A DNA stretch of 64,000 nucleotides from Chloroflexia bacterium. GTDB lineage: Bacteria > Chloroflexota > Chloroflexia > DTKN01. The DNA lies in the NCBI GenBank assembly GCA_041082245.1, contig JBDOIE010000006.1:4950-68949 (forward strand), given 5' to 3'. Each line of letters opens with the position of its first letter. The stretch's first letter is position 1. The notes beneath the pieces were generated by a model. The model made no database searches. It was not told the DNA's origin and was given only the letters and a program-made list of their open reading frames with translations. Positions 3,816 to 49,559 of the stretch are shown here, piece by piece. The position numbers and the translations under genes are program-made.

Positions 3816-3824
3816 AGGCTACCG

Positions 3825-5284: not shown

Positions 5285-5450
5285 GGCCTTGCTGGCCGGG
5301 GAAAACGTGCCTCCGCCGTTCCGTCGCATAGGTACATGCGAAAGGAGGTGGTCGTTCGTCCGGTCTTGAGCGGCCCTGGCAGGTTGCTTGCTTCTTCGGG
5401 GCAAGGCTGCCGGGGTTCTGGAGGTCGCGATCCGACAGGAGGAGAAGACG

Positions 5451-7151: not shown

Positions 7152-7214
7152 GGTCCTTGAGGGCCATGGCCGGGGCTTTGCGCCCCGGCCATGGCCCCGG
7201 CTCAAGAGGCTGGA

Positions 7215-8249: not shown

Positions 8250-8258
8250 GACAACACG

Positions 8259-9215: not shown

Positions 9216-9224
9216 AAGGGCCCT

Positions 9225-10208
9225 ATGGACGCGACACTCCTCGAAGTTAAGGACCTGAAGACGCGCTTCCATACCCCGGAAGGCACTGTGTATGCGGTCA
9301 ACGGCATCTCCTTTTCCCTGCGGGAAGGCGAAGCGCTCGCGATCGTGGGGGAAAGCGGCTGTGGCAAATCCGTGAGCATGCTCTCGATCCTGCGCCTCAT
9401 CCCCATCCCGCCCGGTGAGATCGCCGGGGGCCAGGCGCTCTACCGCGGCGTCGACCTGCTGACGATCGAGGAGGCGGAACTGGAGCACATCCGCGGAAAA
9501 GAGATCAGCATGATCTTCCAGGAGCCGATGACCGCGCTCAACCCGGTGTTGACCATCGGCCGGCAGATCACCGAGGCGCTCCGTACCCACCTCGGAATGA
9601 CCCAGCGGCAGGCCGTGGAGCGAGCTGTCACCCTGCTCGAGTGGGTGGGCATCCCGGCTGCGCGCAGTCGCCTCAACGACTACCCGCACCAGTTTTCCGG
9701 GGGGATGCGGCAACGCGCGATGATCGCGATGGCGCTGGCATGTAACCCCAGTCTGCTCATCGCCGACGAACCGACCACTGCGCTCGACGTGACGATCCAG
9801 GCGCAAATCATCGAGCTCGTGACCCGGCTGCGCGAGGAGGTCGGGATGGCGATCATCTGGATCACGCACGACCTGGGGGTTGTTGCTGGACTGGCGGAAC
9901 GGGTCCTCGTGATGTACGCCGGCTTTATCGTGGAGAAAGCCGAGGTGGACGACCTGTACAACCATCCGCGCCATCCGTATACCCTCGCCCTGCTGGGGGC
10001 CTTGCCGCGTGTGGACCGCAGCCGGCGCGAGCGACTGAAGTCGATCCCCGGGGCACCTCCGAGCTTGCTCGTCGAACCGCAAGGATGCCCCTTCGCTCCG
10101 CGCTGCGAGCAGGTACGCGACATCTGCTGGGAGAAGAACCCCGTGCTGCGGACGGTCGCGCCCAACCATCAGGTGGCCTGCTGGGCCGACGGCCGGACGG
10201 AGGCGTAG
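9225..10208 (+). CDS. Oligopeptide/dipeptide ABC transporter ATP-binding protein (DppD/OppD-like)
   Basis: Walker A GESGCGKS, signature LSGGMRQR, Walker [13 protein letters not shown], and a C-terminal oligopeptide-ABC extension. Confidence 0.9.
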
Positions 10209-10210
10209 GG

Positions 10211-11398
10211 ATGGATACGGCGCGACCGCTCGTCGAGGTGCAGAACCTGGTCAAGTACTTCCCCATCACCCGGGGGATCATCTTCCAGCGCACGATCGGG
10301 TATGTGCGTGCTGTCGACAACATCTCCTTCGACGTGTACCGTGGGGAGACGCTGGGGCTGGTTGGAGAAAGCGGGTGCGGGAAGACGACGGCCGGCCGCA
10401 CGATCGTCCAGCTGTATCCTGCGACCTCCGGCCGCGTGATCTTTGACGGGATCGACCTGATGGCCCTTGCGGCAAATAGCCGGCGGAGCGCGCGACGTGT
10501 GCTCGCGCCCTGGCTCTACCCCTCGCTCACGCTGGCCGCAGGCGCGGCCGGCGGTGCGGTCGGTTACTTCCGACCCTATACCCTCCTCACCACTGCGCTC
10601 CTCGCTCTGGCCGGTACTGGCCTGGGAGCAGGAATCGCCCACCTCTCGCTGCGCGCCGCGGAGAACAACCGCGCGGAAAGCGAAATGCGGCGCGTCCGCC
10701 GCCGCATGCAGATCATCTTCCAGGACCCGTTTGCCTCGCTGAACCCGCGCTGGACGGTCAACGCGATCATCAGCGAGCCGCTGCGCGTCCATGGCATCTG
10801 CCGTACGGCAAAGGAGCGCACGGAACGCGTCGTGGAGCTCCTGGAGCTCGTGGGCCTGAATGCCCGCCACATCAACCGCTTCCCGCACGAGTTCTCAGGG
10901 GGACAGCGACAACGCATCGGGATCGCCCGGGCGCTCGCCACGAACCCCGACTTTGTCGTGTGCGACGAGCCGATCTCTGCCCTCGATGTCTCCATCCAGG
11001 CACAGGTCGTCAACCTGCTGGAGGACCTCCAGGATCGGCTGAACCTGACCTACCTCTTCATCGCCCACGACCTCAGCATGGTGCGCCACATCTGCGACCG
11101 TGTGGCGGTAATGTACGTCGGCAAGATCGTGGAGCTGGGCCCGAAGGACGAAGTGTACGACCATCCCCTGCACCCCTACACCCAGGCGCTGCTCACCGCC
11201 GTGCCGGTGCCCGACCCCGCGGTCCAGCGGCAGCGCAAACGCGTCGTCCTCACCGGCGAAGTGCCCAGCCCGGCTAACCCTCCCCCGGGTTGCCGCTTCA
11301 GTCCCCGCTGTCCAGTGGCGCTCCCCCGTTGCAAGGAAGAAGAGCCTGCCTGGCGCGATGTCGGCGGGGGCCACTGGGTCGCCTGCCACCAGGTCTGA
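10211..11398 (+). CDS. Oligopeptide/dipeptide ABC transporter ATP-binding protein (DppF/OppF-like) with an atypical ~65-aa hydrophobic insertion after the Walker A region
   Basis: [19 protein letters not shown]..., Walker [10 protein letters not shown], ...[17 protein letters not shown], signature FSGGQRQR. Two TM-like stretches ([47 protein letters not shown]) are inserted between FDGIDL and [11 protein letters not shown]. Confidence 0.8.
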
Positions 11399-11473
11399 TC
11401 GCCTGACGTCGGCTCTTGACCCCCGAATGTGGGGGGAAATCGATATGCCCGAATGCACAGAAGGAGGAAACGT

Positions 11474-12640
11474 ATGCCTTACACGTACACCGTCCTGGGG
11501 GCGGGCCGCCAGGGAACGGCTGCAGCCTACGACATGGGCCGCTGGGGCGACGCCCGGCGCGTCATCCTGGCCGACCGCGATTTCGAGATCGCCCGGCGCG
11601 CTGCGGAGCGGGTGAACCGGCTGCTCGGCCGGGAGGTCGCCGAAGCGAGGGTGGTCGATGTAACCGACCATGCGGCCCTGGAAGCGCTCCTGCGCGGCAC
11701 GGATGCCACTTTGAGCGCTGTGCCCTACATCTACAACCTCGAGGCCACCCGCGCGGCCATCCGCGCCGGCTCGAGCTGGTGCGACCTCGGGGGCAACACG
11801 GAGATCGCCCGCCGGCAGCACGCCTACGACACCGAAGCGCGCGCAGCCGGAGTGAGCGTGATCCCCGACTGCGGCCAGGTGCCCGGGATGGGGACCAGCC
11901 TGATGGTCTATGCGATCGAGCTGCTCGACGAGGCGATCGACGTCTATATGTGGGACGGCGGCATCCCCCAGAAGCCCCGGTCCCCGTTCCCCTACCTGCT
12001 CACGTTCCACATCGCGGGCCTCACGAATGAGTATGCGGAGCCGGCGATCTTTATCCGGGACGGCAAAATCACCCGCGTGGAGCCGATGACGGAGCTGGAG
12101 ACGGTCGAGTTCCCCGAGCCGATCGGCACCCTGGAAGCGTTCGTAGCAGGAGGTGGGACGAGCACCATGCCCTGGGCCTACGAGGGGAAACTACGCACCC
12201 TGCAGAACAAGACCCTGCGCCACCCCGGGCACTTTGCCCAGCTGCGCGCCTTCTACGACCTGGGGCTATGGGATCTGAAACCGATCCGGGTGGGCGATCA
12301 GGAAGTTGTCCCGCGCGAGGTTTTTCACGCCCTTTTCGAACCCAAGGTCGTCTTCCCGGAGGACAAGGACCTGTGCATCGTACGCGTCAAGGCGGTCGGC
12401 AAGAAGGACGGCCACGATGCCGCGGTCGTCGTCGAGATGATCGACTACTACGACGAGGCGACCGGCTTTACGGCGATGGAGCGCGCGACCGGCTGGAGCG
12501 CAGCCATCGTGGCGGAGATGATGGCACGCGGCCAGACCCCGCGCGGCGCGGGCGGGGTGGAAACGATGGTCCCGGCCCGTCCCTTCGTGGAGGAACTGCG
12601 CCGGCGAGGGATCTCGGTGACCGAAACCTGGATCGAATGA
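11474..12640 (+). CDS. Saccharopine dehydrogenase NADP-binding family protein (Lys9 / lysine 6-dehydrogenase / carboxynorspermidine-DH-like)
   Basis: MPYTYTVLGAGRQGTAAAYDM is a Rossmann motif. RBS gaaggagg. Overall Sacchrp_dh architecture. Confidence 0.7.
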   Translation: MPYTYTVLGAGRQGTAAAYDMGRWGDARRVILADRDFEIARRAAERVNRLLGREVAEARVVDVTDHAALEALLRGTDATLSAVPYIYNLEATRAAIRAGSSWCDLGGNTEIARRQHAYDTEARAAGVSVIPDCGQVPGMGTSLMVYAIELLDEAIDVYMWDGGIPQKPRSPFPYLLTFHIAGLTNEYAEPAIFIRDGKITRVEPMTELETVEFPEPIGTLEAFVAGGGTSTMPWAYEGKLRTLQNKTLRHPGHFAQLRAFYDLGLWDLKPIRVGDQEVVPREVFHALFEPKVVFPEDKDLCIVRVKAVGKKDGHDAAVVVEMIDYYDEATGFTAMERATGWSAAIVAEMMARGQTPRGAGGVETMVPARPFVEELRRRGISVTETWIE

Positions 12641-12663
12641 TCTTGCTCTTGGCGGAAAGAACC

Positions 12664-12688
12664 GGGGGCCCGAGCGGTTCGGGCCCCC
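12664..12688. terminator. Candidate bidirectional terminator hairpin between convergent genes (10-bp perfect GC stem)
   Basis: gggggcccga-gcggt-tcgggccccc between the stop at 12640 (+) and the stop at 12719 (-). Confidence 0.45.
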
Positions 12689-12718
12689 TTATCATCTCCA
12701 GGGCAACAGGGGACAGGA

Positions 12719-14176
12719 TCAGCGGGGCGGCAGTCGGTCCATTCCGGCCTTCTGCAGCGCCTTCAGGGTGATATCCTCCAGCTCCTTCACCACCTCGGGG
12801 GCAAGCGGCTTCGGCTGGTAGGAAGCGATCAACGCCTCCACTCGCTCGTGGGCCCGCTCGACGGTGTCTTTGCTCCCCTTCATCTCCCAGTTCCGCCGGA
12901 AATCGCGATCGATCACCTCGCTCGGGATATAGAGCTCCTGCCGGAACCAGCGACGGGTATGCTGCGTCTTCAGGAACTCGCCGCTGTGGCCCACCTGACG
13001 GATGATATCGAGCGCATAGGGGATCTCACGCTCGGCGATCCCGGTGACCAGGCGCTTCGCCATCCCCACAATCTCGGCGTCGATAACCAGTTTCTCCAGG
13101 CTGAAGCAGCTCTCGAAATCGAGCATGCCCGGCCCGGAGATCATGTTGATCCCCGCCAGGGCCCCCAGGATCGCCCCGCTCGCGCTCTCGAGCCCGCACT
13201 GCGTATCGACGATCTTGGCATCCGACATACCCAGGTAGGCATGGGTGGGCAACCCGAGCGACTTGCCGACCTCTGCGTAGGCGCAGTCGAACATCATCGT
13301 TTCGATCGCGCCCATGGGCGTCGTTCCCGTGCGCATATCGAAGGCCGCGGGCGAACCGCCCCACACGATCGGGGAACCGGGCTTGACGAGCTGGTGGATC
13401 GTGATCCCGCTCAGGCACTCTGCCGCGTGCTGCACGATCGAACCGAGCAGCGTAGCCGGCCCTGTGGCGCCGGTGAGCGGCATGCTCACGAGCTCCGCCG
13501 GGACCCCGTGGGCGGCGCAGTCCATCATATTTTCGCAGGTGATCTCGGACCAGAGGAGCGGGGGCGAAGGGCAAACGTCGAACACAGCGATCGGCTTTTC
13601 CGCCAGCGCTTGCTCGCTTCCCGCTACGGCTACCAGCAGGTCCTTCATCACATGCCAGGTCTCTACCGCAAACGCCCCGGTGACGACCGGCTTGCGGGCG
13701 TACAGCAGCACCAGGAAGAGCCGGTAGAGGTCGGCGACCGCCTGGGGGACGTCGGCACAGACCAGTGCCGTGCTCACGGCATCCAGCGCAGGAAGGCTGT
13801 CCGCCAGCTGGATGTACCGGACAAAGTCGGCGGTGTAGGGCGGGCGCGAGGTCTTGGCCCCGTACTCCAGGAATTCGATCGCCGCGGACCCTGGGTCGAA
13901 ATGGACGTCGTCCCCGCCGTAGTGCACGGCCGGCCGGCCCTCCGCATCGTACAGGTAGAACGACTTCGGAGCCGTCTGGACGGCCCGTTCCACCAGGTTC
14001 CCCGGGATGTGGGCCACTTTCTTGGCAGCATCGACGCGTGCGCCGTGGTCGGCAAGCAGCTGAAGCGCACGCTCCGAGTGCACCTGTACCCCCGGGTCTT
14101 CCAGCAGCTGGATCGCCTCGTCGATCACCCGCTGCACGGTTTCCGGCGAAAGGAACTGTACCTTCGGTCTGATCAT
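12719..14176 (-). CDS. MttB-superfamily (trimethylamine methyltransferase-like) corrinoid-dependent methyltransferase, paralog 1
   Basis: MIRPKVQFLSPETVQRVIDEAIQLLEDPGVQVHSERALQLLADHGARVDAAKKVAHIPGNLVERAV... has the MttB/MtgB-like N-terminus and TIM-barrel length (485 aa). RBS gaggagg before the ATG at 14176. Confidence 0.8.
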   Translation of the reverse strand: MIRPKVQFLSPETVQRVIDEAIQLLEDPGVQVHSERALQLLADHGARVDAAKKVAHIPGNLVERAVQTAPKSFYLYDAEGRPAVHYGGDDVHFDPGSAAIEFLEYGAKTSRPPYTADFVRYIQLADSLPALDAVSTALVCADVPQAVADLYRLFLVLLYARKPVVTGAFAVETWHVMKDLLVAVAGSEQALAEKPIAVFDVCPSPPLLWSEITCENMMDCAAHGVPAELVSMPLTGATGPATLLGSIVQHAAECLSGITIHQLVKPGSPIVWGGSPAAFDMRTGTTPMGAIETMMFDCAYAEVGKSLGLPTHAYLGMSDAKIVDTQCGLESASGAILGALAGINMISGPGMLDFESCFSLEKLVIDAEIVGMAKRLVTGIAEREIPYALDIIRQVGHSGEFLKTQHTRRWFRQELYIPSEVIDRDFRRNWEMKGSKDTVERAHERVEALIASYQPKPLAPEVVKELEDITLKALQKAGMDRLPPR

Positions 14177-14196
14177 CGTTTCCTCCTCAACGTCGT

Positions 14197-15387
14197 TCAA
14201 GCGGTACCACTATCGCTGGTCTTGCGCACCGGAGGCTGCCTGAGGAGGCGCAACGCCGCTTCCGCAAGGATCGCTGTGCCGATGGGCAGGCAGCGCTCGT
14301 CGATGTCGAAGCGCGGGTGGTGGGCATGGCGCGGATCGTCCTCGATCCGACAACCCAGCCCGAACATCGCGCCCGGCGCCAGTTCCAGGAAGACGGCGAG
14401 ATCCTCCGCCCCCATCTCGAGGCGCGAAGTGGGCAGGTGCCCCGGGCCGAGCAGATCGGTCACCACCTGGCGGATAACCTCAACCACCGTGGCGTCGCAC
14501 TGCATCGGCGGGCAGCCGACATCGATCCGCAGCCGGTAGTCGCCCCCCAGTGCACGCGCCACGCCCAGGGCGCGTTCGATCTCGGCGTGGATCTGTTTCT
14601 GTACCTCGGGGTCCATGTAGCGGATCGTCCCGCTCAGTTCCACTTTTTCCGGGATGACGTTGTGTGTTTGTCCTCCGTGAATGGACCCGATGCTGATGAG
14701 CGCCGGGTCGGCCGGCCGCAAGCGTCGGGAGACGATCCCGTGGAGGGCGAGGATCACGTGGCCCGCGAGGTAGATCGGGTCGATCACTTCGTGCGGGGCC
14801 GCAGCGTGACCACCCCGGCCCAGCAGGGTGATGTAGAAAGTGTCCACTCCGGCCGAACCCGGGCCGGCGGAGACGGTAATCTCTCCCACGGGGCGGGTCG
14901 CATCGACGTGCGTGGCCAGGACGTATTCCACCCCCTCCATGGCCCCGTCCTCGACCATGCGTGGCGCGCCGCTCCGGCCGCCTTCGTCGTCTGCCTCCTC
15001 CGAAGGCTGGAAGAGCAGACGCAATGTCCCCGGGAAATCCTCCCGTGCCAGCAGGGCCCCTACCCCAAGCACCATCGCGGTGTGGGCGTCGTGCCCGCAG
15101 GCGTGCATTACGCCCGGGTGCTGGGAAGCGTAGGGGACGTCGTTCTCCTCCTGAATGGGCAGCGCGTCCATATCGGCGCGCACTGCCACTACCGGCCGGC
15201 CCTCCCCTCTCTCGGCCACCACCCCGGTACGGCCGACCCCCGTACGGACCCGGTACCCCAGGCCTTGCAGGACCTCCGCCACGCGGCCCGCCGTGCGCAC
15301 CTCCTGGAAGCCCACCTCCGGGTACATATGGAACTCTCGCCGCCAGGCGACGAGCTGTTCTGCGATCTCCTGCGCGCGTTGTAGCAT
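14197..15387 (-). CDS. M20D-family amidohydrolase (N-acyl-L-amino acid amidohydrolase / hippurate hydrolase-like)
   Basis: MLQRAQEIAEQLVAWRREFHMYPEVGFQE...ACGHDAHTAM carries M20D metal-binding motifs. Start chosen at ATG 15387 behind ggaggtg. Confidence 0.8.
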   Translation of the reverse strand: MLQRAQEIAEQLVAWRREFHMYPEVGFQEVRTAGRVAEVLQGLGYRVRTGVGRTGVVAERGEGRPVVAVRADMDALPIQEENDVPYASQHPGVMHACGHDAHTAMVLGVGALLAREDFPGTLRLLFQPSEEADDEGGRSGAPRMVEDGAMEGVEYVLATHVDATRPVGEITVSAGPGSAGVDTFYITLLGRGGHAAAPHEVIDPIYLAGHVILALHGIVSRRLRPADPALISIGSIHGGQTHNVIPEKVELSGTIRYMDPEVQKQIHAEIERALGVARALGGDYRLRIDVGCPPMQCDATVVEVIRQVVTDLLGPGHLPTSRLEMGAEDLAVFLELAPGAMFGLGCRIEDDPRHAHHPRFDIDERCLPIGTAILAEAALRLLRQPPVRKTSDSGTA

Positions 15388-15470
15388 CACCACCTCCGTA
15401 CAACTCCAGGAGCCTATCCCAAACCCCTCGCCGGGTCGGCGAAGGCGGGTAGGCCAGGCCACAACAAGCT

Positions 15471-16898
15471 CTATGTCAACCCGAGGGAAGCGATGAACGC
15501 TTCTCCTCGAGCAATCAGCTCCGCTTGATCGGGCGGAGGAGCTGCCGTCTCAAGGAGTGCAACGGTGTACTCGCGCAGCCGCTCGTCCGCGCGCGGCCGA
15601 CCCTCGGCTCGCCACTTCTCCAGGCTCCAGCGTGGAAAGATCGGGCTGGTGTAATAAGCTTCGCGGTAGTGGCGACGCGTCTGGTCGGCCAGCAGGAAAT
15701 TCCCGCCCGGCCCCACCTGGTCGATCTCCTCGAGCCCGATCGCCTCCTCGTCCAGGAGGAATCCTTCCGCAAAGCGCAGCGCCTGCGCGATCACCTCGTG
15801 AGCATAAACCGCCGTCGCTGGCGAAAACGCTTTCGATGTCAGAGTATCCCCGACAAAGGGGGCCAGGCCTACCTTCCCGATGCAGGAGCTGAGCTGGTTC
15901 ATCCAGTAGGTGTCGGCCGCCAGGAGGTCCGGTCCCCAACCGGTACCGCTGCCCGAGCTTCCGCAGTGCGGAAGCCTGTAATGCGCCATCATCTCCGCGC
16001 AGGCCAGGTTCAAGAGGAAACTCTTCGGCTCGTAGAACGAAACCATCGTCTTCAGGTCGAAGAACGCCGGAAGCATCCCCAGGATGACTGGAGCGCCCTC
16101 GCGTACCAGCTGGCTCAGCACCAGACCGGCCAGGAGCTCCGCCTGCAGAAGCACAAGCATTCCCGCCGGCGTGATCGGCGTGGTCATCCCGGCCATGCTG
16201 TAGTTCGAGTAGATCACCGGAAGCCCGCGCTCGATCGCCTCCACCATCTTGTCCCCGGTTCCCTCGTTGATGATGAGCGGGCTGACCGGGTTAAAATAGG
16301 GAACGACGAACGGCCGGGAAGCCAACTCGCCGCAGAGCGCCTCCAGAAGGTCCAGCACCGCCGGGAAGCGCGCCTCGTCGGAGACCAGGATCACGAGCGG
16401 CTTGGTCGTGTTGGCGACCATTTCCAGGGTGGCGTAGAGGTCGGACACCGGGGCCGGCACGTCCTGCACGATGCCGATGGTCGAGATCACATCGTAGAGA
16501 GGGAGTTGACCGCCCAGCCGCACGATCTGCGCCATATGCGCGCGACCAAAGGGGACGATGTCGTCGTTCCGTGGATCCTGGTAATAAAGCGCGGTTACGC
16601 CGATGCCAAAGCGTGTGCGTTCCTGACCTTCCCCCAACCGGAAGGCCGGCCGTCCGAGCCGGTCGTAGACCTGTACGGACGACGGCGCGCAGCGCAGCGC
16701 CCATTCCACCAGGTCAGGCGGAATCCGCACCCGGCCGTCGCGCACCTCGCCCAACGCCTGTGCAAACAGCGCACGGGCGCGCGGCGAGTCGACCCGCACA
16801 CCCGTGGTCGCGAGGAGGCTCAGCGAATCGCGGTGCACCCGTTCGATCTGTTCCGGGGTCAGGAGCTCAAGCCGCGGCCGGACGTAGCTGCTTTCCAA
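15471..16898 (-). CDS. MttB-superfamily corrinoid-dependent methyltransferase, paralog 2
   Basis: MESSYVRPRLELLTPEQIERVHRDSLSLLATTGVRVDSPRARALFAQALGEVRDGRVRIPPDLVEWALRCAP...; 475 aa. Confidence 0.8.
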   Translation of the reverse strand: MESSYVRPRLELLTPEQIERVHRDSLSLLATTGVRVDSPRARALFAQALGEVRDGRVRIPPDLVEWALRCAPSSVQVYDRLGRPAFRLGEGQERTRFGIGVTALYYQDPRNDDIVPFGRAHMAQIVRLGGQLPLYDVISTIGIVQDVPAPVSDLYATLEMVANTTKPLVILVSDEARFPAVLDLLEALCGELASRPFVVPYFNPVSPLIINEGTGDKMVEAIERGLPVIYSNYSMAGMTTPITPAGMLVLLQAELLAGLVLSQLVREGAPVILGMLPAFFDLKTMVSFYEPKSFLLNLACAEMMAHYRLPHCGSSGSGTGWGPDLLAADTYWMNQLSSCIGKVGLAPFVGDTLTSKAFSPATAVYAHEVIAQALRFAEGFLLDEEAIGLEEIDQVGPGGNFLLADQTRRHYREAYYTSPIFPRWSLEKWRAEGRPRADERLREYTVALLETAAPPPDQAELIARGEAFIASLGLT

Positions 16899-16907
16899 AG
16901 GGTCCTC

Positions 16908-17987
16908 CTATTCCTTCGGCGGTACCCAGGGAGTCAGGGTGTATTCGTAGTAGGTCGTCTCGCACGGCCGTCCCCGGCCGATCCAGGCACGCCGCTCGTT
17001 CAGGTTGATGATGATGCTGAAAACGGTCACCGAGCTGCCGTCGTGCTTGCAGATCGATGCCGGATAGTTTTCGTGGTCGGCAAGCAGCTTTTGAAAGAGC
17101 GTGGGGGAGAGCCGGCCATAGTTCTCCCGCAAGAGCCGGCGTGCCCGGTAGAAACGGATGATCGAGTTGCCGATCCCGTGGGGATTGGCCTCGAAGGCAC
17201 GCATCGGCCACGACAGGTAATGGTTCGTGTGGGCCATAATGTTCCCTTCGACGTAAAGCGGCTCGCAGTCGGTGGCCGATCCTTCCATGCTGTAGATCTC
17301 GCCGCTCGGGTCCGCGATCACGTTGTTATAGTTCGAGGCGCGCAGCGGCAGAAGGCATGCATCCATCGCCTCGCCCAGCCGCTTGGCCGCCAGGATCGCC
17401 CGCGCGATCAGCAGGCGCGGGACACCCGGCCGGATGTCGCGGCAAGATACCGCGTTGCCCGTCATGCTGATGCCCGCAGCGTTGAATCCCGCGCTGAAGC
17501 CCAGGCCCCCGATCGACACCCCCAGGAACTCCGGATCATCCCCGGCCTGCACCTGGAAAATCGCCAGGTGTTCCTCGGCTTCCGGTGCGGTGTCGTTCGT
17601 GTGCGCCACCAGGGTGGAGCCATCCACGGTGGCCCTTCCGCGCGCGGCCATATCGGTGCAGCCCCGCAGGAGTACCGTCCCTGCACCCCAGGCAGCCGGC
17701 TCCCACAGCTCCTCGCACACCCCCAGGAAGACATGCTCGAACGGCAATCCGGAACCTTCGGCAATTCCCTCCAGTTCTTCGACAAAGTGCGGGTAAACAC
17801 TCCGGCTGTGGGCCAGGCAGAGGCGACCTTTGAGCAGCATATCGTCCCACGTCACGCCCGGTGGCAGGTGCGTTTCCATCCACGCAAGCGTCTGCTCGAG
17901 CTGGCTTTTCATGATCTCGCCGATCTGGCGGCCTACCTCGCGGTAGGAACCACGGATCTGATAAAGTGGGATCGGGCTCGCTGCCAT
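16908..17987 (-). CDS. Peptidase C45 family Ntn-hydrolase (acyl-CoA:6-aminopenicillanic acid acyltransferase-like)
   Basis: MAASPIPLYQIRGSYREVGRQIGE...VLLRGCTDMAARG fits the C45 family with a Gly-Cys autoproteolysis site. RBS ggaggtga before the ATG at 17987. Confidence 0.7.
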   Translation of the reverse strand: MAASPIPLYQIRGSYREVGRQIGEIMKSQLEQTLAWMETHLPPGVTWDDMLLKGRLCLAHSRSVYPHFVEELEGIAEGSGLPFEHVFLGVCEELWEPAAWGAGTVLLRGCTDMAARGRATVDGSTLVAHTNDTAPEAEEHLAIFQVQAGDDPEFLGVSIGGLGFSAGFNAAGISMTGNAVSCRDIRPGVPRLLIARAILAAKRLGEAMDACLLPLRASNYNNVIADPSGEIYSMEGSATDCEPLYVEGNIMAHTNHYLSWPMRAFEANPHGIGNSIIRFYRARRLLRENYGRLSPTLFQKLLADHENYPASICKHDGSSVTVFSIIINLNERRAWIGRGRPCETTYYEYTLTPWVPPKE

Positions 17988-18009
17988 AACCTCACCTCCT
18001 TTCTTCCCA

Positions 18010-19665
18010 TCAGCCACGGTGCCGCAGTACGCGGCCCGGCAGGGCACCGGTATGCTCGCCTCCGTCGATCACCGGTACGCCGTTCACCAGGACATAGTCG
18101 ATCCCTTCGGCATAGGCGTGCGGATAGTTCTCAAAGGGATAAACGTGCGGGTAAAGGTTCGTCGCGCGGTCCCGCACCCGCTCCAGGTCGAAGACGAACA
18201 GGTCCGCCCAGGCACCCGGCCGTATGACGCCGCGGTCGTGGAGGCCGAAGCGCTGGGCCGGAAACGAGGTCATCTTGCGGATCGCCTCTTCCAGCCGCAG
18301 AACCCTTTGCTGACGCACATAGCGTTCCAGCACCCCGGGGAATTCCCCGTAACTGCAGGGCGAGTAGGGCGGAGGGTCGTTCAGGAAGCCGTAAGGGGCA
18401 AGGACCTGCCCGTCGGAGCAGATCATGACCAGCGGGTGCTGCAGCAGGATGCGGATGTTCGCCTCGTCGATGTAGTCAAAGATCGCCTCGGCCTCGTGCC
18501 CGTTCTCGACGATCAGGTCGAAGTAGGCGTCGAACGGATCTACCCCGCGTTCCCGGGCGACCGCTTCGACGGTCTTGCCCACCGCCCAGGGCGTCCGGGG
18601 TGCGTGCAGGATCGTGATCCGCTCCCAGCGCCCGTGCTTGAGCAGGCTCGCCGGTCCAAACGCCGGACGACGATCGCGGACGATCTCCTCGCGCACCAGG
18701 CGTCGCATCTCCGGGTCCCGCAACCGGGCGGCGATCTCTTCCGCCGGCAAATCCTGCATCGCCTGCGGCAGGGCTCCGGTGAGCGCCGGCCCCAGGTCCG
18801 TATGTACGTCGTTGTCCACGGTGACGTCCTGGCCGGCCGCACGTGCCTCCTCCACCAGCCTCAGGGTCGCGTGCGCATCGCACGGGGCTCCGTACTTGGG
18901 GGCATTGTGCGAGATCTGCACCGGCAACCCCGCCTCCCGGCCGATACGGATCGCCTCCGCGACCGCCTCGAGGACCGTCTCCCGCTCGCCGCGTACGTGG
19001 GAGGCGTACAGGCCGTGGTAGCGCGCCGCAACGCGTGCCAGAGCCACGATCTCGTCCGTCTGGGCAAAGCACCCCGGAGGATACACAAGTCCGGTCGAAA
19101 GGCCGAAAGCGCCCGCTTCCATCGCTTCCGCGAGCAACGTCTGCATCCGCGCCAGTTCTTCCGGGCGTGGGGCGCGCTCCTCGTATCCCATGACGGCGAT
19201 GCGGAGCGCCGAATGCCCGGCCAGAGAAGCGATGTGGATCGCAAGCCCCCCACGCTCCAGTGCCCGCAGGTACTGCGCGAAGGTGCGCCATCGCCAGTGG
19301 ACACCCGGCCCGTCCGCGTGCCGCCCCCAGAAGCGACGGATCTCCTCAAAGTGCGCGTCGTCCACCGGTGCAGGCGACATGCCACAGTTCCCGATGACTT
19401 CGGTCGTCACGCCCTGGCGCACGACGCTTTCCGCCCGGCGGTTGATCAGGATGGAAAGGTCCGAGTGGGTGTGCACATCGATGATGCCCGGGGCGACGTA
19501 GCGGCCGTCCAGGTCGATCACCCGCTGCCCACGCAGCGATCCCGCTGCCCCGATCGCCGCGATGCGGCCACGCCGGATGCCTACATCCCCCCAGTACCAG
19601 GGGTTCCCGCAGCCGTCGATGATCCGCGCGTTCGCAAGCACCAGGTCCAGCGTCGCCTCGGGCAT
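18010..19665 (-). CDS. N-acyl-D-amino-acid deacylase (D-aminoacylase) family metal-dependent amidohydrolase
   Basis: MPEATLDLVLANARIIDGCGNPWYWGDVGIRRGRIAAIGAAGSLRGQRVIDLDGRYVAPGIIDVHTHSD... has the amidohydrolase HxH motif and a D-aminoacylase C-terminal region. Start placed at the internal ATG 19665 behind gaggtga; the longer track ORF N-terminus is Arg/Gly-rich junk. Confidence 0.8.
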   Translation of the reverse strand: MPEATLDLVLANARIIDGCGNPWYWGDVGIRRGRIAAIGAAGSLRGQRVIDLDGRYVAPGIIDVHTHSDLSILINRRAESVVRQGVTTEVIGNCGMSPAPVDDAHFEEIRRFWGRHADGPGVHWRWRTFAQYLRALERGGLAIHIASLAGHSALRIAVMGYEERAPRPEELARMQTLLAEAMEAGAFGLSTGLVYPPGCFAQTDEIVALARVAARYHGLYASHVRGERETVLEAVAEAIRIGREAGLPVQISHNAPKYGAPCDAHATLRLVEEARAAGQDVTVDNDVHTDLGPALTGALPQAMQDLPAEEIAARLRDPEMRRLVREEIVRDRRPAFGPASLLKHGRWERITILHAPRTPWAVGKTVEAVARERGVDPFDAYFDLIVENGHEAEAIFDYIDEANIRILLQHPLVMICSDGQVLAPYGFLNDPPPYSPCSYGEFPGVLERYVRQQRVLRLEEAIRKMTSFPAQRFGLHDRGVIRPGAWADLFVFDLERVRDRATNLYPHVYPFENYPHAYAEGIDYVLVNGVPVIDGGEHTGALPGRVLRHRG

Positions 19666-19670
19666 CGCTC

Positions 19671-21128
19671 TCACCTCGCTCCCTCTTCTACTGCGGCGAT
19701 GATCCGACCCAGCTCGGCATCCAGCCGTGGATCGAGTGGTTCGGGATGATAGGAGGCCAGGATCTCCTGTGCCCGCGCACGCGCCCACTCGCGCGCGCCA
19801 TCCCGGCGCTCTTCCCACACCTCGTAGGGTCGGCGGTCCATCAGCCGAGGCACCCAGAGGGCCCGCATATGTTCCTTGGTGTGCCGATGCTTCAGGAAAT
19901 TGCCCCCCGGCCCAACCTCGCGGATCGCGCCCAGGGCAAGCGTCTCCTCGTTGACCACGATCCCGGACATCATATGGCGGATGATGCTCCAGATCTCGCA
20001 GTCCATCAGGAGTTGCTCGTACGACCAGATGCGGCTCCCGTGCAGGAGCCCGACACCGAGCAGCATATCGGACCCGACCACCGAGGCCATGAAGGTGGAA
20101 AGGCTGTTTTCGATGCCCGCCTGCCAGTTCGGTTCCTTGGCCCCCGTGGCAAAGGACCCCATGGAGAGGGGGACGTGGTAGAAATCGGCCAGCGCGTTGG
20201 TTGCAGCACCGAAGAGGAAATCCTCCGGACCGCCACCGGTGTAGGCCCCCGTGCGCAGGTCCATCGCCGTCTGGGCCGCGGCGTAGAACACCGGTGCCCC
20301 CGGAAAGGCCAGCTGGATGAGCGCCAGCGCGCTGATCACTTCGGCATTGCCCACGACCAGATTCCCCGCGAGCGTGGCCGGCCCGGTGGAGGCACAGGAG
20401 GCCATCGTCATGAAGCCGACCGGCAGTCCAGCCTCCGCTCCGACGAGCGCTGCCTCCAGGCTTCCGCCGTCGTGCCCAAGGGGAGAGGTCGTGCACTCCA
20501 TAATGGACAGGATGGGGCGCGCGCGAAGCGCTTCCCGCCCCCCGGCGAGCACGGCGGCCATCTCCACCGCGGCCTGCGCCTCCCGGGCGGAGTAGATGCT
20601 TTCCGTCTGCACATGCTTGGTCGAGTGGCGCCAGATCGCCCGCAACTCGTGCAGTCCGCGCGACTCCGGTGGGCAATCCTGCGCCGAAACCGGCACCCAG
20701 TGAAAAGCTACCTCGTCCAGGTAGTCAGCGATGCGCGCGATATCCGCGACATCCTGCAGGCAGGAACGGCGCCGCACGCCGGTCTCCAGGTCGATCACCT
20801 CCACCCCGCACCCGTCCGTCCCCACATACACGTGGTGACCGTCCAGCGGCAGGTCCAACGTGGGATCGCGTGCTGCCAGGGTATAGACAGGCGGCGCGTG
20901 GCGCAACGCCTCTTCGATGAGCGCCCCGGGCGCGCGCACGATCATCGTCTGGCGGTCGACGCGCGCGCCGTGCGCTTCCCAGATCTCGAGCGCACGCAAC
21001 GAGGGGAACCGCACCCCTACCGTTTCGATCACATCGAGCGTCGCGGTATGGATGCGCTGCACATCCTCCGGGGATAGCACTTCCAGGCGGAGGCGCGGAT
21101 CGCTGATGGAGCAGATCCGTCCCGGCAT
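19671..21128 (-). CDS. MttB-superfamily corrinoid-dependent methyltransferase, paralog 3
   Basis: MPGRICSISDPRLRLEVLSPEDVQRIHTATLDVIETVGVRFPSLRALEIWEAHGARVDRQTMIVRAPGALIEEALRHAP...; 485 aa. Confidence 0.8.
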   Translation of the reverse strand: MPGRICSISDPRLRLEVLSPEDVQRIHTATLDVIETVGVRFPSLRALEIWEAHGARVDRQTMIVRAPGALIEEALRHAPPVYTLAARDPTLDLPLDGHHVYVGTDGCGVEVIDLETGVRRRSCLQDVADIARIADYLDEVAFHWVPVSAQDCPPESRGLHELRAIWRHSTKHVQTESIYSAREAQAAVEMAAVLAGGREALRARPILSIMECTTSPLGHDGGSLEAALVGAEAGLPVGFMTMASCASTGPATLAGNLVVGNAEVISALALIQLAFPGAPVFYAAAQTAMDLRTGAYTGGGPEDFLFGAATNALADFYHVPLSMGSFATGAKEPNWQAGIENSLSTFMASVVGSDMLLGVGLLHGSRIWSYEQLLMDCEIWSIIRHMMSGIVVNEETLALGAIREVGPGGNFLKHRHTKEHMRALWVPRLMDRRPYEVWEERRDGAREWARARAQEILASYHPEPLDPRLDAELGRIIAAVEEGAR

Positions 21129-21161
21129 CCGATTCCTCCTGGGGACGGCACTTGCCCCTGC

Positions 21162-21809
21162 TTACGCCCCTACCAGTCGCCTGGCCACCGCCACCGCGCC
21201 AATGGCATCTTCGCTGAACCCTTCCGCCCCGATCTCCTCGGCCCAGGATGCAGTCACCGGGGCGCCGCCGACCATGACCTTCACCTTCGGGCGAAGGCCG
21301 GCCGCTTCCAGGGCCTGGATCACCTCTCGCTGGCGGAGCATGGTGGTTGTAAGGAGTGCACTCAACCCGACAATGTCGGCATCGACCTCGCGCGCCTTGG
21401 CGACGAACCGCTCTGCGGGGACGTCCACGCCGAGGTCGTAGACCTGGAAGCCGCTGGCGGCAAGCATCGTCCCCACCAGCGTCTTGCCGATCTCATGGAT
21501 GTCCCCCTGGACCGTGCCCAGTACGACTTTGCCGAGCGTCTTCCGCTCCGTGCCCCGACGGGCCATTTCCGGCTCCAGCGTGGCCACCGCCGCCTTCATC
21601 GCCTCGCCGGCCAGCACGAGGTCCGGGAGGAACATCTCGCCCTTGGCAAACTGATCCCCTACATAGTTCACCCCGACCACGAACCCCTTGTTGATCGCAT
21701 CCAGGGGATCGATGCCCTGCTCGATCGCCTGCTGCGCGAGCTTTCGCGCCGCGTCGATGTCGCCGTCCACGATGCTCTGCGCCATAGCCCGGAAGAGTTC
21801 TTCGGACAC
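21162..21809 (-). CDS. Cobalamin-binding corrinoid protein (MtbC/MttC/MtgC-like; B12-binding_2 cap plus Rossmann-like B12-binding domain)
   Basis: ...DAARKLAQQAIEQGIDPLDAINKGF...GEMFLPDLVLAGEAM...VVLGTVQGDIHEIGKTLV... has the DxHxxG His-on cobalamin-binding motif. Start proposed at GTG 21809 behind aaggaggg. Confidence 0.8.
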   Translation of the reverse strand: MSEELFRAMAQSIVDGDIDAARKLAQQAIEQGIDPLDAINKGFVVGVNYVGDQFAKGEMFLPDLVLAGEAMKAAVATLEPEMARRGTERKTLGKVVLGTVQGDIHEIGKTLVGTMLAASGFQVYDLGVDVPAERFVAKAREVDADIVGLSALLTTTMLRQREVIQALEAAGLRPKVKVMVGGAPVTASWAEEIGAEGFSEDAIGAVAVARRLVGA

Positions 21810-21944
21810 GGTGACCCTCCTTTGTCCAAAACCGATCGATCCTCGCAACGCGTTGGCCGGCGCGGGGTCGCACCGGCGCGCCGTGCATCTTACCACAGCT
21901 CTGCACGGCTGTCAAACGGCCCTTTGCAAATCGACGTAAAGGAG

Positions 21945-21973
21945 TTGAAAAGACGCGCATCCTATGGTAAAAT
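21945..21973 (+). promoter_or_regulatory. Promoter for the Lrp/AsnC gene (TTGAAA, 17 bp, extended -10 TGgTAAAAT) inside the divergent control region shared with the corrinoid operon
   Basis: ttgaaa at 21945-21950 and taaaat at 21968-21973. Confidence 0.45.
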
Positions 21974-22036: not shown

Positions 22037-22541
22037 GGGAGGTACGATGGACGACCTGGATCGGCTCATCCTGCAGACGCTGCAGCAGGACGGCCGGACA
22101 CCGTTCCGCCAGATCGCCCGGGAAGCGGGCGTCTCCGAGACGACGATCCGCAGCCGGTACAGGCAGCTTGTCGCCCAGGGGATCATCCGCACGGTGGGGA
22201 TCGTGGACCCCTACGCCCTCGGGTTCCAGGCCCCGGCGCTGGTGGGGGTATCCGCCGAGCCGGGGCGAATCGACGCGGTCGCCAGGGCGATCGCCGCGCT
22301 CCCCGAGGTGAGCTACCTTGTGATGACCCTGGGTTCCTGGGATCTGGTGATCGAGGTGTTTTGTCGGGACCTTCCCCACCTGAGCCGGCTGATCACCGAG
22401 CAGATCCACAGCATCCCGGGCGTGCGCAGCACCGAGACGCTGATGATCGCACGCAGCTACAAGCTCAGCTACCGCTGGTCCCCCTCTCCCGTGGAGGAGG
22501 ACGAGGGCTCCCTCGAAATCGACGCGAGCGATCCGCGCTGA
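22037..22541 (+). CDS. Lrp/AsnC family transcriptional regulator
   Basis: MDDLDRLILQTLQQDGRTPFRQIAREAGVSETTIRSRYRQLVAQGIIRTVGIVDPYALGF... has the HTH_AsnC domain plus a RAM domain. Confidence 0.85.
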
Positions 22542-22574: not shown

Positions 22575-23957
22575 GTGTCCATTGCCGTCGAGAGACCGAC
22601 CGCCGCAGAGCAAGCGCTCTGGCCAGCACCCCCGCTCCCCGCGCCGCTCCTGGTGACCGAGATCCCCGGGCCGAAGGCACGCGCGCTGATCGAGGCCGAC
22701 GAACGGGTGACCTCTCCTTCGCTCCCGCGGGCCTTTCCGCTCGTCGTAGACCACGCACAAGGGTGCGTGGTGACCGACGTCGACGGCAACCGCTTCCTGG
22801 ACCTCGCTGCCGGCATCGCCGTGTGCGCGACCGGCCATTGCCACCCCCGGGTGGTCCAGGCGATCCGGGAACAGGCGGGCCGTCTGATCCATATCTGCGG
22901 GTCCGACTTTTACTACCGCCCCTATGCCGATCTGGCCGCACGGCTGACCTCCCTGGCGCCCGGGCCCGGCCCCTGGCGCGCGTTCCTGACGAACTCGGGT
23001 GCGGAGGCGGTCGAAGCCGCGCTCAAACTGGCCCGCCATGCTACCCGACGACACCGCTTCATCGCTTTCCTGGGCGCCTTTCACGGCCGTACCCTGGGCA
23101 CAGTGAGCCTCACAGCGAGCAAGGCAAAATACCGCCAGAGCTTCGGCCCGCTCCTGCCCGACGTCACCCACGTTCCTTACGGCGACTGCTTTCACTGCCA
23201 CTTCCACCTGCGGTATCCAGAGTGCGGACTCTGTTGCATTGCCTATATCGAGGAGCAGATTCTCACCCGGGTCGCGCCCGCGGAGGACGTCGCGGCGATC
23301 ATCGTGGAACCGGTCCTCGGCGAAGGCGGCTACATCGTCCCACCGCCCGATTGGTTACCCGCGCTGCGCCGGCTCTGTGACCGCCACGGCATCCTGCTGA
23401 TCGCCGACGAAGTGCAGAGCGGCATGGGCCGCACCGGCCGGATGTTCGCGGTCGAGCACTTCAGCGTGGTTCCGGATATCCTCACGCTGGCGAAAGGGAT
23501 CGCTTCCGGCATGCCGGTCGCTGCGATGCTCGCCCGGGCCGAGCTGATGACCTGGCCCAGGGGCGCGCATGGGAGCACCTACGGCGGAAATCCCGTAGCC
23601 TGCGCCGCCGCCCTGGAGACGATCGCTCTGCTCGAAGAAGGGCTGATGGCGCACGCGGCCCGGCTGGGGGCCGATCTGCTCACCTGCCTAAGGGCGATCG
23701 CCGACCGCCACCCCATCCTGGTGGACGTACGCGGGCTGGGCCTGATGATCGGCCTGGAGTTCGCCACGCCTGCACAGGCATCCGCCGTGGCATGGGAGTG
23801 TTTCCGCCGCGGTGTCATCGTTCTGGAATGTGGCGACCAGGCGATCCGCCTCAGTCCGCCGCTCGTCCTGAGCAACAAAGAAGCGGAGGTCGCCCTGCAA
23901 ATCCTGGAAGAGGCGATCGCCGCAGTAGAACAGGGCGGCGCAGGGGAACAGTCCTAG
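22575..23957 (+). CDS. Class III aminotransferase (4-aminobutyrate / omega-amino acid transaminase-like)
   Basis: ...LIADEVQSGMGRTGRMFA... is the PLP-lysine region. GTG start behind aaggagg. Confidence 0.8.
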   Translation: MSIAVERPTAAEQALWPAPPLPAPLLVTEIPGPKARALIEADERVTSPSLPRAFPLVVDHAQGCVVTDVDGNRFLDLAAGIAVCATGHCHPRVVQAIREQAGRLIHICGSDFYYRPYADLAARLTSLAPGPGPWRAFLTNSGAEAVEAALKLARHATRRHRFIAFLGAFHGRTLGTVSLTASKAKYRQSFGPLLPDVTHVPYGDCFHCHFHLRYPECGLCCIAYIEEQILTRVAPAEDVAAIIVEPVLGEGGYIVPPPDWLPALRRLCDRHGILLIADEVQSGMGRTGRMFAVEHFSVVPDILTLAKGIASGMPVAAMLARAELMTWPRGAHGSTYGGNPVACAAALETIALLEEGLMAHAARLGADLLTCLRAIADRHPILVDVRGLGLMIGLEFATPAQASAVAWECFRRGVIVLECGDQAIRLSPPLVLSNKEAEVALQILEEAIAAVEQGGAGEQS

Positions 23958-23966
23958 GAGGTCCGA

Positions 23967-24878
23967 ATGAAACAGATGAGCATGCGCGAAGCGATCGCGG
24001 CGTTCGTCCACGACGGCGACACTGTGGCCATCGAAGGCTTTACCGCCTGCATCTGCTTTGCGGCTGCCCACGAGATCATCCGCCAGGGACGGAAAGAGCT
24101 GACCCTCTGCCGGATGACCCCCGACCTCGTCTACGATATGATGGTAGCCGCCGGGTGTGCACGAAAACTCGTCTGCTCCTACATCGGCAACCCGGGCGTC
24201 GGTTCCCTGCATGCGATCCGCCGCGCGGTGGAAAAGGGCATCCCCGCTCCTCTGGAGCTGGAGGAGTACTCCCACTTTGGTATGGTCGCCCGCTACACCG
24301 CGGGTGCCTACCGCTTGCCCTTCTTCCCGCTGCGTTCCTACCAGGGCAGCGACCTGCCGCGCGTCAACCCGTTCATTCGTTCTGTACAGAGCCCGTACGG
24401 GGACGGGGAGGTAGCCGTTGTACCGCCGTTGAACCCCGACGTGACGATCGTCCACGCTCAGCGGGCTGACCCCGATGGGAACACTCATCTTTGGGGGCTG
24501 CTCGGGGTACAGAAGGAAGCCGCGTTTGCCGCGCGGCACGTGATCGTCGTGGTGGAAGAGATCGTGCCTCCGGACGTGATCCGTTCCGATCCGAACCGCA
24601 CGATCATCCCCGGGCTGATCGTGGACGCCGTGGTACACGAACCGTACGGCGCACACCCCTCGTATGTACAGGGCTATTACGATCGGGACAACGCCTTCTA
24701 CCTGCGCTGGGACGAGATCAGCAGGGACGAGGCCACGACACGCGCCTGGTTGGAAGAATGGGTCTACGGGGTTCCAGATCGGGCCGCCTACGTGGCCAAG
24801 ATGGGGACGGAGCTGTGGGAACGCCTCCGCCCGGGGGAGGCTTTCGCCCACCCGGTGAACTACGGGCGTTACGCCTGA
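23967..24878 (+). CDS. CoA-transferase subunit A (glutaconate / 3-oxoacid CoA-transferase family I)
   Basis: MKQMSMREAIAAFVHDGDTVAIEGFTACICFAAAHEIIRQG... Confidence 0.75.
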   Translation: MKQMSMREAIAAFVHDGDTVAIEGFTACICFAAAHEIIRQGRKELTLCRMTPDLVYDMMVAAGCARKLVCSYIGNPGVGSLHAIRRAVEKGIPAPLELEEYSHFGMVARYTAGAYRLPFFPLRSYQGSDLPRVNPFIRSVQSPYGDGEVAVVPPLNPDVTIVHAQRADPDGNTHLWGLLGVQKEAAFAARHVIVVVEEIVPPDVIRSDPNRTIIPGLIVDAVVHEPYGAHPSYVQGYYDRDNAFYLRWDEISRDEATTRAWLEEWVYGVPDRAAYVAKMGTELWERLRPGEAFAHPVNYGRYA

Positions 24879-24899
24879 GGCACGAGCAAGGAGAACGCC

Positions 24900-25664: not shown

Positions 25665-25681
25665 CCAAGATAGGAGGTCCT

Positions 25682-26872: not shown

Positions 26873-26886
26873 AGGAGGCGGTCCCC

Positions 26887-28461: not shown

Positions 28462-28499
28462 TTGCGTATTTGGCCCCGCTCCTGTATAATGGGGCCAAA
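28462..28499 (+). promoter_or_regulatory. Promoter (TTGCGT, 17 bp, TATAAT) whose -10 is bracketed by a perfect 9-bp inverted repeat TTTGGCCCC...GGGGCCAAA (putative operator) upstream of the pyrD-like gene
   Basis: cttgcgtatttggccccgctcctgtataatggggccaaat. Confidence 0.45.
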
Positions 28500-43571: not shown

Positions 43572-43577
43572 GGCACC

Positions 43578-49531: not shown

Positions 49532-49559
49532 AAAAGCAGGTTCGGAAAGAGAGGTAACG

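Follow-up and report, generated by a model that had tools for sequence, protein, structure and literature searches.

What substrate would call for three different MttB-superfamily methyltransferases, a single corrinoid protein and hydrolases of three different families, all encoded in one operon? The question is raised by a 64,000-nucleotide stretch of DNA from a Chloroflexia bacterium (GenBank assembly GCA_041082245.1, contig JBDOIE010000006.1, positions 4,950 to 68,949 of the forward strand), hereafter the window, in which the seven genes lie side by side on the minus strand. Judged from gene content, the operon represents one version of a modular catabolic island that is common in Chloroflexota. 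Its parts could work together on a diamino acid in N-methylated, N-acylated or peptide-bound form, a reading that we hold tentatively and for which a methylated lysine is the foremost candidate. The direction in which methyl groups flow, the coupling of hydrolases and methyltransferases on one substrate and the identity of that substrate are all proposed here from genomic context.

One operon, three MttB paralogs

Seven co-directional genes occupy positions 12719-21815 of the minus strand, in the same order as in the preliminary description of this DNA, and the intergenic gaps in the direction of transcription (corrinoid protein to MttB1) are 33, 5, 22, 9, 83 and 20 bp. Five of the seven gene starts were confirmed by gene calls made independently on metagenome contigs that encode identical proteins; such proteins were found on metagenome contigs only, and the closest named relatives of the window proteins belong to Chloroflexia metagenome-assembled genomes. 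A promoter-like site some 70 bp ahead of the corrinoid-protein gene and a terminator-like hairpin past MttB1 bracket the seven genes as one predicted unit, and the single minus-strand operon with gaps of 5-83 bp that had been proposed is thereby borne out. An Rfam scan of the whole 64-kb window retrieved no riboswitch or other RNA element at the gathering threshold. The G+C content of the operon region is 64-68%, and third-position G+C separates true genes from shadow open reading frames (ORFs). A 2116-aa ORF at 3819-10169 (minus strand) is the shadow of plus-strand HlyD and ATP-binding cassette (ABC) transporter genes, a high-G+C artefact and not a gene, and an 888-aa ORF at 18010-20676 is the real amidohydrolase merged with out-of-frame MttB3 sequence. 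The operon itself is not a product of chance, because the same genes recur, reordered, in other Chloroflexota genomes.

All seven family assignments of the preliminary description held up against matches in Pfam, NCBIfam and the Protein Data Bank. The profile hidden Markov model search that it had recommended places the three paralogs within the MttB family (PF06253) and a His-on B12-binding domain in the corrinoid protein. The latter joins a B12-binding_2 cap to a B12-binding Rossmann domain, passes the NCBIfam model TIGR02370 (225.8 against a cut-off of 215.3) and has the sequence DIHEIG, an instance of the DxHxxG His-on motif, followed by SALL and GG. MttB1, MttB2 and MttB3 score 290.8, 206.5 and 308.2 bits against PF06253/COG5598 (cut-off, 25) over approximately positions 29-490 of the 500-position profile, and each aligns full-length to the solved MtgB and MttB structures. 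Matches of MttB1 and MttB3 to these chains have E values of 1e-62 to 1e-78, and MttB3 is 35% identical over its full length to MtgB, its best solved relative. The AlphaFold (AF2) model of MttB2 (predicted local distance difference test score, 87.5) gives this paralog a triosephosphate isomerase (TIM) barrel fold of the MttB/MtgB type, with template modeling scores of 0.90 to Methanosarcina barkeri MttB (7XCL) and 0.88 to MtgB (9YCE). All three paralogs are predicted to demethylate a methylated amine, with a Co(I) corrinoid as methyl acceptor. They are truly different proteins, as had been claimed, sharing only 26-29% pairwise identity and falling each in its own conserved clade. The MttB3 clade is the most conserved (67-96% identity across more than 120 protein clusters); the MttB2 clade is widespread in Chloroflexota and Acidobacteriota and has the motif LPHCG[ST]SGSGTGWGPD.

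The residues of the predicted substrate pocket set the three clades apart from the characterized enzymes. A 2026 study of MtgB identified Y97 and F356 as cation-pi residues and R312 and H348 as residues that bind the carboxylate, and reported R312 to be conserved in MtcB, MtpB, MthB and MtyB (PMC13080624). In an alignment of 120 clade members with MtgB and MttB, in which residue mapping rests on 25-35% identity, all four MtgB residues are replaced in each of the three clades. The residue at the R312 position is instead nearly fixed within each clade: His in the MttB1 clade (29 of 29), Cys in the MttB2 clade (30 of 32) and Ser in the MttB3 clade (45 of 48). The pyrrolysine column holds Met/Ala, Ser and Ala in the three paralogs, their ORFs are uninterrupted with no in-frame UAG, and their scores against TIGR02369, the equivalog model of trimethylamine MttB, are 392.6, 215.9 and 448.2, all below the cut-off of 525. 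We reject a glycine-betaine specificity on the loss of the MtgB residues, and a true pyrrolysine-containing trimethylamine MttB on the missing UAG together with the sub-threshold TIGR02369 scores. Therefore, the paralogs are neither MtgB-type enzymes nor trimethylamine MttB nor, by the R312 criterion, the characterized betaine enzymes. A fixed pocket residue per clade argues for three distinct predicted specificities.

Two explanations by known chemistry can be weighed against these residues. Three methyltransferases for three methyl groups would suit a stepwise conversion of glycine betaine to dimethylglycine, sarcosine and glycine, with the hydrolases as passengers, and it fits such a route that MtgB is the nearest solved relative of MttB3 and that the best NCBIfam match of the corrinoid protein is an MtgC model, though under its cut-off (241 against 310; a further MtgC-specific model scores 191 against 370). 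We regard this route as very unlikely, given the replacement of Y97, R312, H348 and F356 in all three clades and a neighborhood in which glycine-cleavage, serine hydroxymethyltransferase and betaine-transporter genes are absent and genes of lysine/omega-amine catabolism are found. It is also highly improbable that the paralogs are further members of known specificities (proline betaine, carnitine, gamma-butyrobetaine, choline or trimethylamine) in an ordinary quaternary-amine locus. They do share the superfamily and the type of corrinoid partner with those enzymes, and gamma-butyrobetaine would fit the nearby aminotransferase of the gamma-aminobutyrate (GABA) type; however, the Arg at R312, the residue on which the comparison was made, is absent from all three clades, and the pyrrolysine and TIGR02369 results speak against trimethylamine.

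The region around the R312 position is unusual in the MttB2 clade. C300, E302 and H311 are invariant there, H306 and C312 nearly so, and an invariant GSGTGWGPD follows directly, in the one loop (318-326) that the AlphaFold model predicts with low confidence. These Cys, Glu and His residues could make up a metal site or a new site of substrate activation.

D-aminoacylase (1M7J, 6e-73) and N-acyl-D-glutamate deacylase (3GIP) are the best solved relatives of the Amidohydro_3 protein, which has HxH (DVHTHSD) and GNCG motifs; its match to 1M7J is split in two stretches by an insert, and it stays under every NCBIfam equivalog cut-off. The peptidase C45 protein passes NF040521 (187.4 against 85) and PF03417 (75 against 23), matches isopenicillin-N acyltransferase (2X1D) at 1.6e-13 and carries a Gly-Cys site (LLRGCTD) for putative self-cleavage. 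Members of its clade, in 120 clusters, share at least 66% identity. The M20D protein, whose best solved relatives are YxeP (1YSJ) and ILL2 (1XMB), has the dimerisation domain PF07687 and passes TIGR01891 (352.7 against 153.75) but not the cut-offs for CpsA (348 against 500) or DoeB2 (240 against 550).

A modular island in related genomes

We compared about 140 related loci (80 genome loci of the MttB2 clade, 52 metagenome loci of the MttB3 clade and a dozen contexts with precomputed Pfam annotations) by tblastn and clustering of conserved ORFs. The check on conserved gene order that the preliminary description had suggested found the exact seven-gene order only in L009 and L093, close relatives at approximately 90-95% amino-acid identity; elsewhere, genes are shuffled or missing. 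A fixed, conserved seven-gene operon is ruled out, and the genes are therefore better described as a modular island. At its core, MttB3 is directly preceded by the corrinoid-protein gene in 36 of 55 loci, many of the remainder being on incomplete contigs, and is directly followed by an MttB1-clade gene in about 25. An orthologous M20 gene sits directly beside a third MttB gene in 18 loci. In 14 of them this MttB belongs to the MttB2 clade; in the other 4, a fourth MttB clade, approximately 25-33% identical to MttB1, MttB2, MttB3, MtgB and MttB, replaces it as the M20 partner. Chloroflexota and Acidobacteriota appear to hold at least three, and probably four, new and strongly conserved MttB specificity clades. 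The fourth-clade gene of L014 adjoins a saccharopine-dehydrogenase-fold gene.

Amide and peptide hydrolases recur around these clades in many families (M20, C45, Amidohydro_3, amidase-signature, S9, M14 and creatininase-type). Of the 54 MttB2 loci of at least 12 kb, 28 contain one or more of these hydrolases, a count that is not corrected for kinship. In L106, an amidase-signature (PF01425) enzyme encoded directly past MttB3 (11622-13136) represents a further unrelated amide-hydrolase family. Orthologues of the Opp-type importer that adjoins the operon in the window (62-75% identity) separate MttB1 from the MttB-M20 pair inside the MttB operons of L112 and L113, and adjoin C45/M20 genes in L145, L147 and L148. 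When contexts were looked up in reverse, from C45, the importer was present in all three (L145, L147 and L148) and MttB in only one (L148). The hydrolases are thus upheld only in part as dedicated partners of MttB.

Such contexts support the main rival reading, two unrelated modules under one promoter, in which the hydrolases and the Opp importer would scavenge ordinary small peptides or N-acyl amino acids and the corrinoid protein and MttB enzymes would demethylate a separate free methylated amine, the two being co-regulated as parts of an island for nutrient scavenging. L145 (C45 and Opp) and L147 (C45-M20 and Opp) have no MttB gene within 9 kb, the corrinoid-MttB3-MttB1 core often stands without a nearby hydrolase (as in L091, L092 and L108), and gene order varies highly among genomes. 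Against this separation, the modules have merged repeatedly, in various orders and lineages (the window, L004, L013, L014, L043, L094, L098, L099, L103, L113, L123 and L148), the M20 gene is almost always the direct neighbor of the third MttB, and the importer sits inside the operon in L112 and L113. On balance, we consider independent modules rather unlikely. The preliminary description had linked deacylation to demethylation. The recurrence of hydrolase families beside the MttB clades lends weight to this idea; a single shared substrate is not proven, because the hydrolase and Opp module occurs without MttB in two of the three reverse look-ups.

Some neighbors of the MttB genes led elsewhere. 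Creatininase-family genes brought up creatinine or sarcosine as substrates, an idea that was dropped, as these neighbors are confined to one Anaerolineales lineage and may reflect shared ancestry. Large ORF pairs upstream of some clusters, first guessed to encode hydantoinases, encode DnaG and RpoD. In L007 and L029 (approximately 4383-11422), a lone MttB2-clade gene is divergent from genes for a GCV_T-family (folate-binding aminomethyltransferase-like) protein, two flavin adenine dinucleotide-dependent amine oxidases and an SBP_bac_3 amino-acid ABC importer, a different and oxidative-looking context for this clade.

Probable lysine and omega-amine catabolism around the operon

The genes flanking the operon, which lay outside the view of the preliminary description, point to lysine-type or omega-amine catabolism as the probable destination of the pathway (Table 1). 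Convergent on the operon is a gene for a saccharopine-dehydrogenase-fold protein that matches 3ABI, the L-lysine 6-dehydrogenase of Pyrococcus horikoshii (PMC10413350); the product matches no NCBIfam model, and the 3ABI match supports membership in the fold family only. Genes of this kind neighbor the MttB2 clade in 11 loci. On the other side, a divergent AsnC-family regulator gene, found in the same position in eight loci (L004, L009, L013, L014, L090, L094, L098 and L106), precedes a catabolic module of two class-III aminotransferases, the second of the omega-transaminase type, a coenzyme A (CoA)-transferase and a thiolase. The module stands beside MttB genes in eight further Chloroflexota loci (L004, L009, L013, L090, L093, L094, L097 and L098) and beside lone MttB2-clade genes in Acidobacteriota (L024, L028, L049 and L051), where the 3ABI-like dehydrogenase, M14 and S9 genes are also found. 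Its composition fits the breakdown of an omega-amino acid that would derive from lysine or beta-lysine. In L090 (1-1516) and L094 (6739-8610), an aldehyde:ferredoxin oxidoreductase is part of the divergent module, which suggests that an aldehyde derived from the omega-transaminase reaction is oxidized anaerobically there.

A second lysine enzyme occupies the island in other genomes. Lysine 2,3-aminomutase, a radical S-adenosylmethionine enzyme, is encoded in or adjoining MttB clusters in five loci (L013, L031, L090, L094 and L100). The two tested (L013 and L090) score 581-585 against an equivalog cut-off of 525 and match the AblA model. The gene is embedded in the cluster of L013 (corrinoid protein-MttB3-MttB1-aminomutase-MttB2-Amidohydro_3-M20), directly follows MttB1 in L090, L094 and L100, and lies beside an MttB2-clade gene in L031. 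The lysine-6-dehydrogenase-like gene (the window, L004, L014, L019 and the Acidobacteriota loci) never shares a locus with it, although the numbers are small. That two unrelated enzymes acting on L-lysine take the same place points to L-lysine as an intermediate of the pathway.

The same enzymes could be read in the opposite direction, as a route that methylates or acylates a (beta-)lysine-derived compatible solute with an aminomutase and a GNAT enzyme, as in N6-acetyl-beta-lysine synthesis. The match of the aminomutase to the AblA equivalog model agrees with this, as does a GNAT protein in the L004 module that is weakly similar to the beta-lysine-acetylating Sat enzymes. We nonetheless judge a biosynthetic role extremely unlikely in the catabolic company of a thiolase, a CoA-transferase, two transaminases, an aldehyde oxidoreductase, importers and several hydrolases; moreover, we know of no MttB-family enzyme that acts as a net amine methylase.

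Positions of the other features in the window and in related loci are collected in Table 1.

Table 1. Features of the window and of related loci discussed in the text.
Feature	Locus	Position	Strand	Evidence or composition
Opp/Dpp-type ABC importer	Window	5388-11398	+	SBP_bac_5, two permeases, two ATPases; best solved relative oligopeptide-binding AppA (1XOC)
Lysine-6-dehydrogenase-like protein, saccharopine-dehydrogenase fold	Window	11429-12640	+	3ABI, 6.4e-28; convergent on operon
Intrinsic-terminator-like hairpin past MttB1	Window	12664-12688	-	10-bp stem, 9 G-C pairs, then T-rich tail
MttB1	Window	12719-14176	-	PF06253, E = 2e-86
M20D amidohydrolase, aminoacylase type	Window	14197-15387	-	TIGR01891
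MttB2, most diverged MttB paralog	Window	15471-16898	-	PF06253, E = 6e-61
Peptidase C45/AAT-family autoproteolytic Ntn acyl-hydrolase/transferase	Window	16908-17987	-	PF03417, NF040521
Amidohydro_3 metal-dependent amidohydrolase, D-aminoacylase-like	Window	18010-19665	-	1M7J, E = 6e-73
MttB3, non-pyrrolysine MttB-superfamily methyltransferase	Window	19671-21128	-	PF06253, E = 8e-92
Corrinoid (B12-binding) protein, methyltransferase-cognate type	Window	21162-21815	-	PF02607 and PF02310, TIGR02370
Sigma-70-like promoter of the seven-gene operon (putative)	Window	21887-21915	-	TTGACA-17-TAAGAT, extended TG; consensus match only
Promoter-like site of the Lrp/AsnC-family regulator	Window	21945-21973
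Lrp/AsnC-family regulator	Window	22047-22541	+	Divergent from operon
Catabolic module	Window	22575-28224	+	Class-III aminotransferase (GABA/acetylornithine type), CoA-transferase A and B, thiolase, class-III omega-transaminase
Lysine 2,3-aminomutase	L013	8667-9980
Lysine 2,3-aminomutase	L031	1-912
Lysine 2,3-aminomutase	L090	12026-13309
Lysine 2,3-aminomutase	L094	~14794-16104
Lysine 2,3-aminomutase	L100	~5525
Fourth-clade MttB	L014	16952-18460
Fourth-clade MttB	L099	3736-5154
Fourth-clade MttB	L103	6499-7911
Fourth-clade MttB	L113	9229-10716
Fourth-clade MttB	L123	6578-8092

We propose the following sequence of events for a methylated diamino acid. The adjacent Opp-type importer would take in a small peptide-like or N-acylated conjugate, from which the D-aminoacylase-like, C45 and M20D hydrolases would release an N-methylated diamino acid, the best candidate being a methylated lysine, for example N6-trimethyl-lysine or one of its partly methylated forms. 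The three MttB enzymes, each from its own clade, would then transfer N-methyl groups to the single corrinoid protein in its Co(I) state. A methyl-corrinoid:tetrahydrofolate (THF) methyltransferase would pass the methyl group to THF and a reductive activase would keep the corrinoid active, both of them encoded outside the window. The demethylated lysine would enter catabolism through the lysine-6-dehydrogenase-like protein here, or through lysine 2,3-aminomutase in the relatives, and the two class-III aminotransferases, CoA-transferase and thiolase would finish its breakdown.

Several observations weigh against this scheme. The connection to lysine consists of five loci and one match to a solved enzyme (6e-28), and no lysine aminomutase is encoded in the window. 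The C45 contexts that lack MttB indicate that the hydrolases may serve another substrate. A corrinoid-protein gene within 10 kb was found in only 5 (one of them the window) of 82 MttB2-clade loci, a set made up of the 80 genome loci, the window and L006. Kinship among many of the loci compared means that their counts are not independent. Further, the window encodes neither the pterin-binding methyl-THF:corrinoid methyltransferase (MT2) nor a RamA-type activase, the search for the latter having covered the window. An MT2 gene does lie inside the cluster in L043, L115, L116 and L144 (NF005719, 303 against 259); these related clusters are therefore probably complete methyl-transfer systems, and the MT2 of the window must lie elsewhere. 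Lastly, the characterized non-pyrrolysine MttB enzymes act, to our knowledge, on quaternary amines only, and stepwise removal of three methyl groups without pyrrolysine would be unprecedented.

The boldest version of the scheme would have the three MttB enzymes and the one corrinoid protein strip all three methyl groups in turn from N6-trimethyl-lysine (or a related lysine-derived betaine), the amidases freeing the substrate from N-acyl or peptide conjugates, the lysine then being degraded by way of lysine 2,3-aminomutase or a lysine 6-dehydrogenase, and a putative Cys/His metal site of the MttB2 clade possibly serving the hardest step. We consider it distinctly unlikely in this full form.

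Farther downstream in the window, a dihydroorotate-dehydrogenase-family flavoenzyme and a truncated-looking glycerophosphodiester phosphodiesterase are encoded directly past the second aminotransferase (28499-30200). Genes for cell-envelope glycosylation are grouped at 41508-57841, where four paralogous PMT_2-type glycosyltransferases, GT87, GT2 and GT4 enzymes, a DUF362 protein and an LPG_synthase_TM protein are encoded. G+C is clearly lower at 49-57.4 kb (approximately 0.60 against 0.65-0.69), and this part may have been acquired horizontally.

Known corrinoid systems and significance

Systems that pair a corrinoid protein with MttB are already known; what is new is the multi-paralog core, the recurrent association with amidases, the link to lysine and omega-amines, and the unlike pocket residues. 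A literature search on MttB with amidohydrolases, Chloroflexi and trimethyllysine returned nothing relevant, and no paper was found on MttB genes interleaved with amidohydrolases or on this arrangement, in line with its earlier description as novel. Among the closest systems is the glycine betaine:THF pathway of Desulfitobacterium hafniense (MtgB/MtgC/MtgA), which likewise sets a non-pyrrolysine MttB TIM barrel beside a His-on corrinoid protein. The MT2 of some related loci extends this likeness, though the window has none. The D. hafniense system differs from the operon described here, where one corrinoid protein would serve three diverged paralogs interleaved with amide hydrolases and neighbored by lysine/omega-amine genes.

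Several enzymes of Eubacterium limosum (MtpB, MtcB, MtyB and MthB, acting on proline betaine, carnitine, gamma-butyrobetaine and choline) share a corrinoid protein. They illustrate how multiple MttB paralogs can feed a single corrinoid protein and how MT2 and the activase can be encoded elsewhere. The E. limosum paralogs are not known to be co-operonic with amidohydrolases, however, and come from a gut acetogen rather than a Chloroflexota host; they also have Arg at the R312 position (PMC13080624), where the paralogs in the window have His, Cys or Ser. Methanosarcina MttB/MttC has the same fold as that modeled for MttB2 and the same type of corrinoid partner, but is set apart by its in-frame UAG codon for pyrrolysine and by the TIGR02369 model whose cut-off our paralogs do not reach.

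The preliminary description had also called an aerobic-type host atypical for this chemistry, a claim that fails on two counts. The MtgBCD proteins of Ruegeria pomeroyi demethylate glycine betaine aerobically in a pathway tied to methionine synthesis (PMC12478193), and corrinoid demethylation by the MttB family is thus not limited to strict anaerobes. The Ruegeria system differs in having another corrinoid-domain lineage and the partner MtgD, and neither hydrolases nor multiple paralogs in one operon. In addition, relatives of the island carry the oxygen-sensitive lysine 2,3-aminomutase and aldehyde:ferredoxin oxidoreductase, the latter of the tungsten or molybdenum type; such genes are characteristic of an anoxic lifestyle.

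For the catabolic end of the scheme, a parallel may be drawn with the beta-lysine route of Pseudomonas B4. As Barker and co-workers reportedly described it, the route runs from N6-acetyl-beta-lysine by a transaminase to 3-keto-6-acetamidohexanoate and on to 4-acetamidobutyryl-CoA, after which a deacetylase yields GABA for a second transaminase. The window would share with that route a pair of different class-III transaminases, an amide deacylase and CoA-ester chemistry acting on a 3-keto acid, and relatives of the island add the aminomutase and the GNAT enzyme. The corrinoid and methyl-transfer part has no counterpart in that route, and the CoA-transferase and thiolase would here replace the 3-keto acid cleavage enzyme.

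In environmental genomes, few unassigned methyltransferase families are as abundant as the non-pyrrolysine MttB homologs, for which only about half a dozen substrates are known, and Chloroflexota and Acidobacteriota are abundant in sediments, sludge and soils. For each of the new clades, the island supplies a genomic context of amidases, peptide importers, lysine aminomutase or dehydrogenase and omega-amine catabolism. Should the substrate prove to be a methylated lysine, or another methylated amine derived from proteins or osmolytes, the island would represent an unrecognized route for methyl groups into the folate pool and would reveal how amino acids methylated after translation are recycled where oxygen is absent. 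If the stepwise demethylation of trimethyl-lysine were true, it would be the first corrinoid-dependent pathway for the demethylation of methyl-lysine and the first instance of an MttB-family enzyme demethylating tertiary and secondary amines without pyrrolysine.

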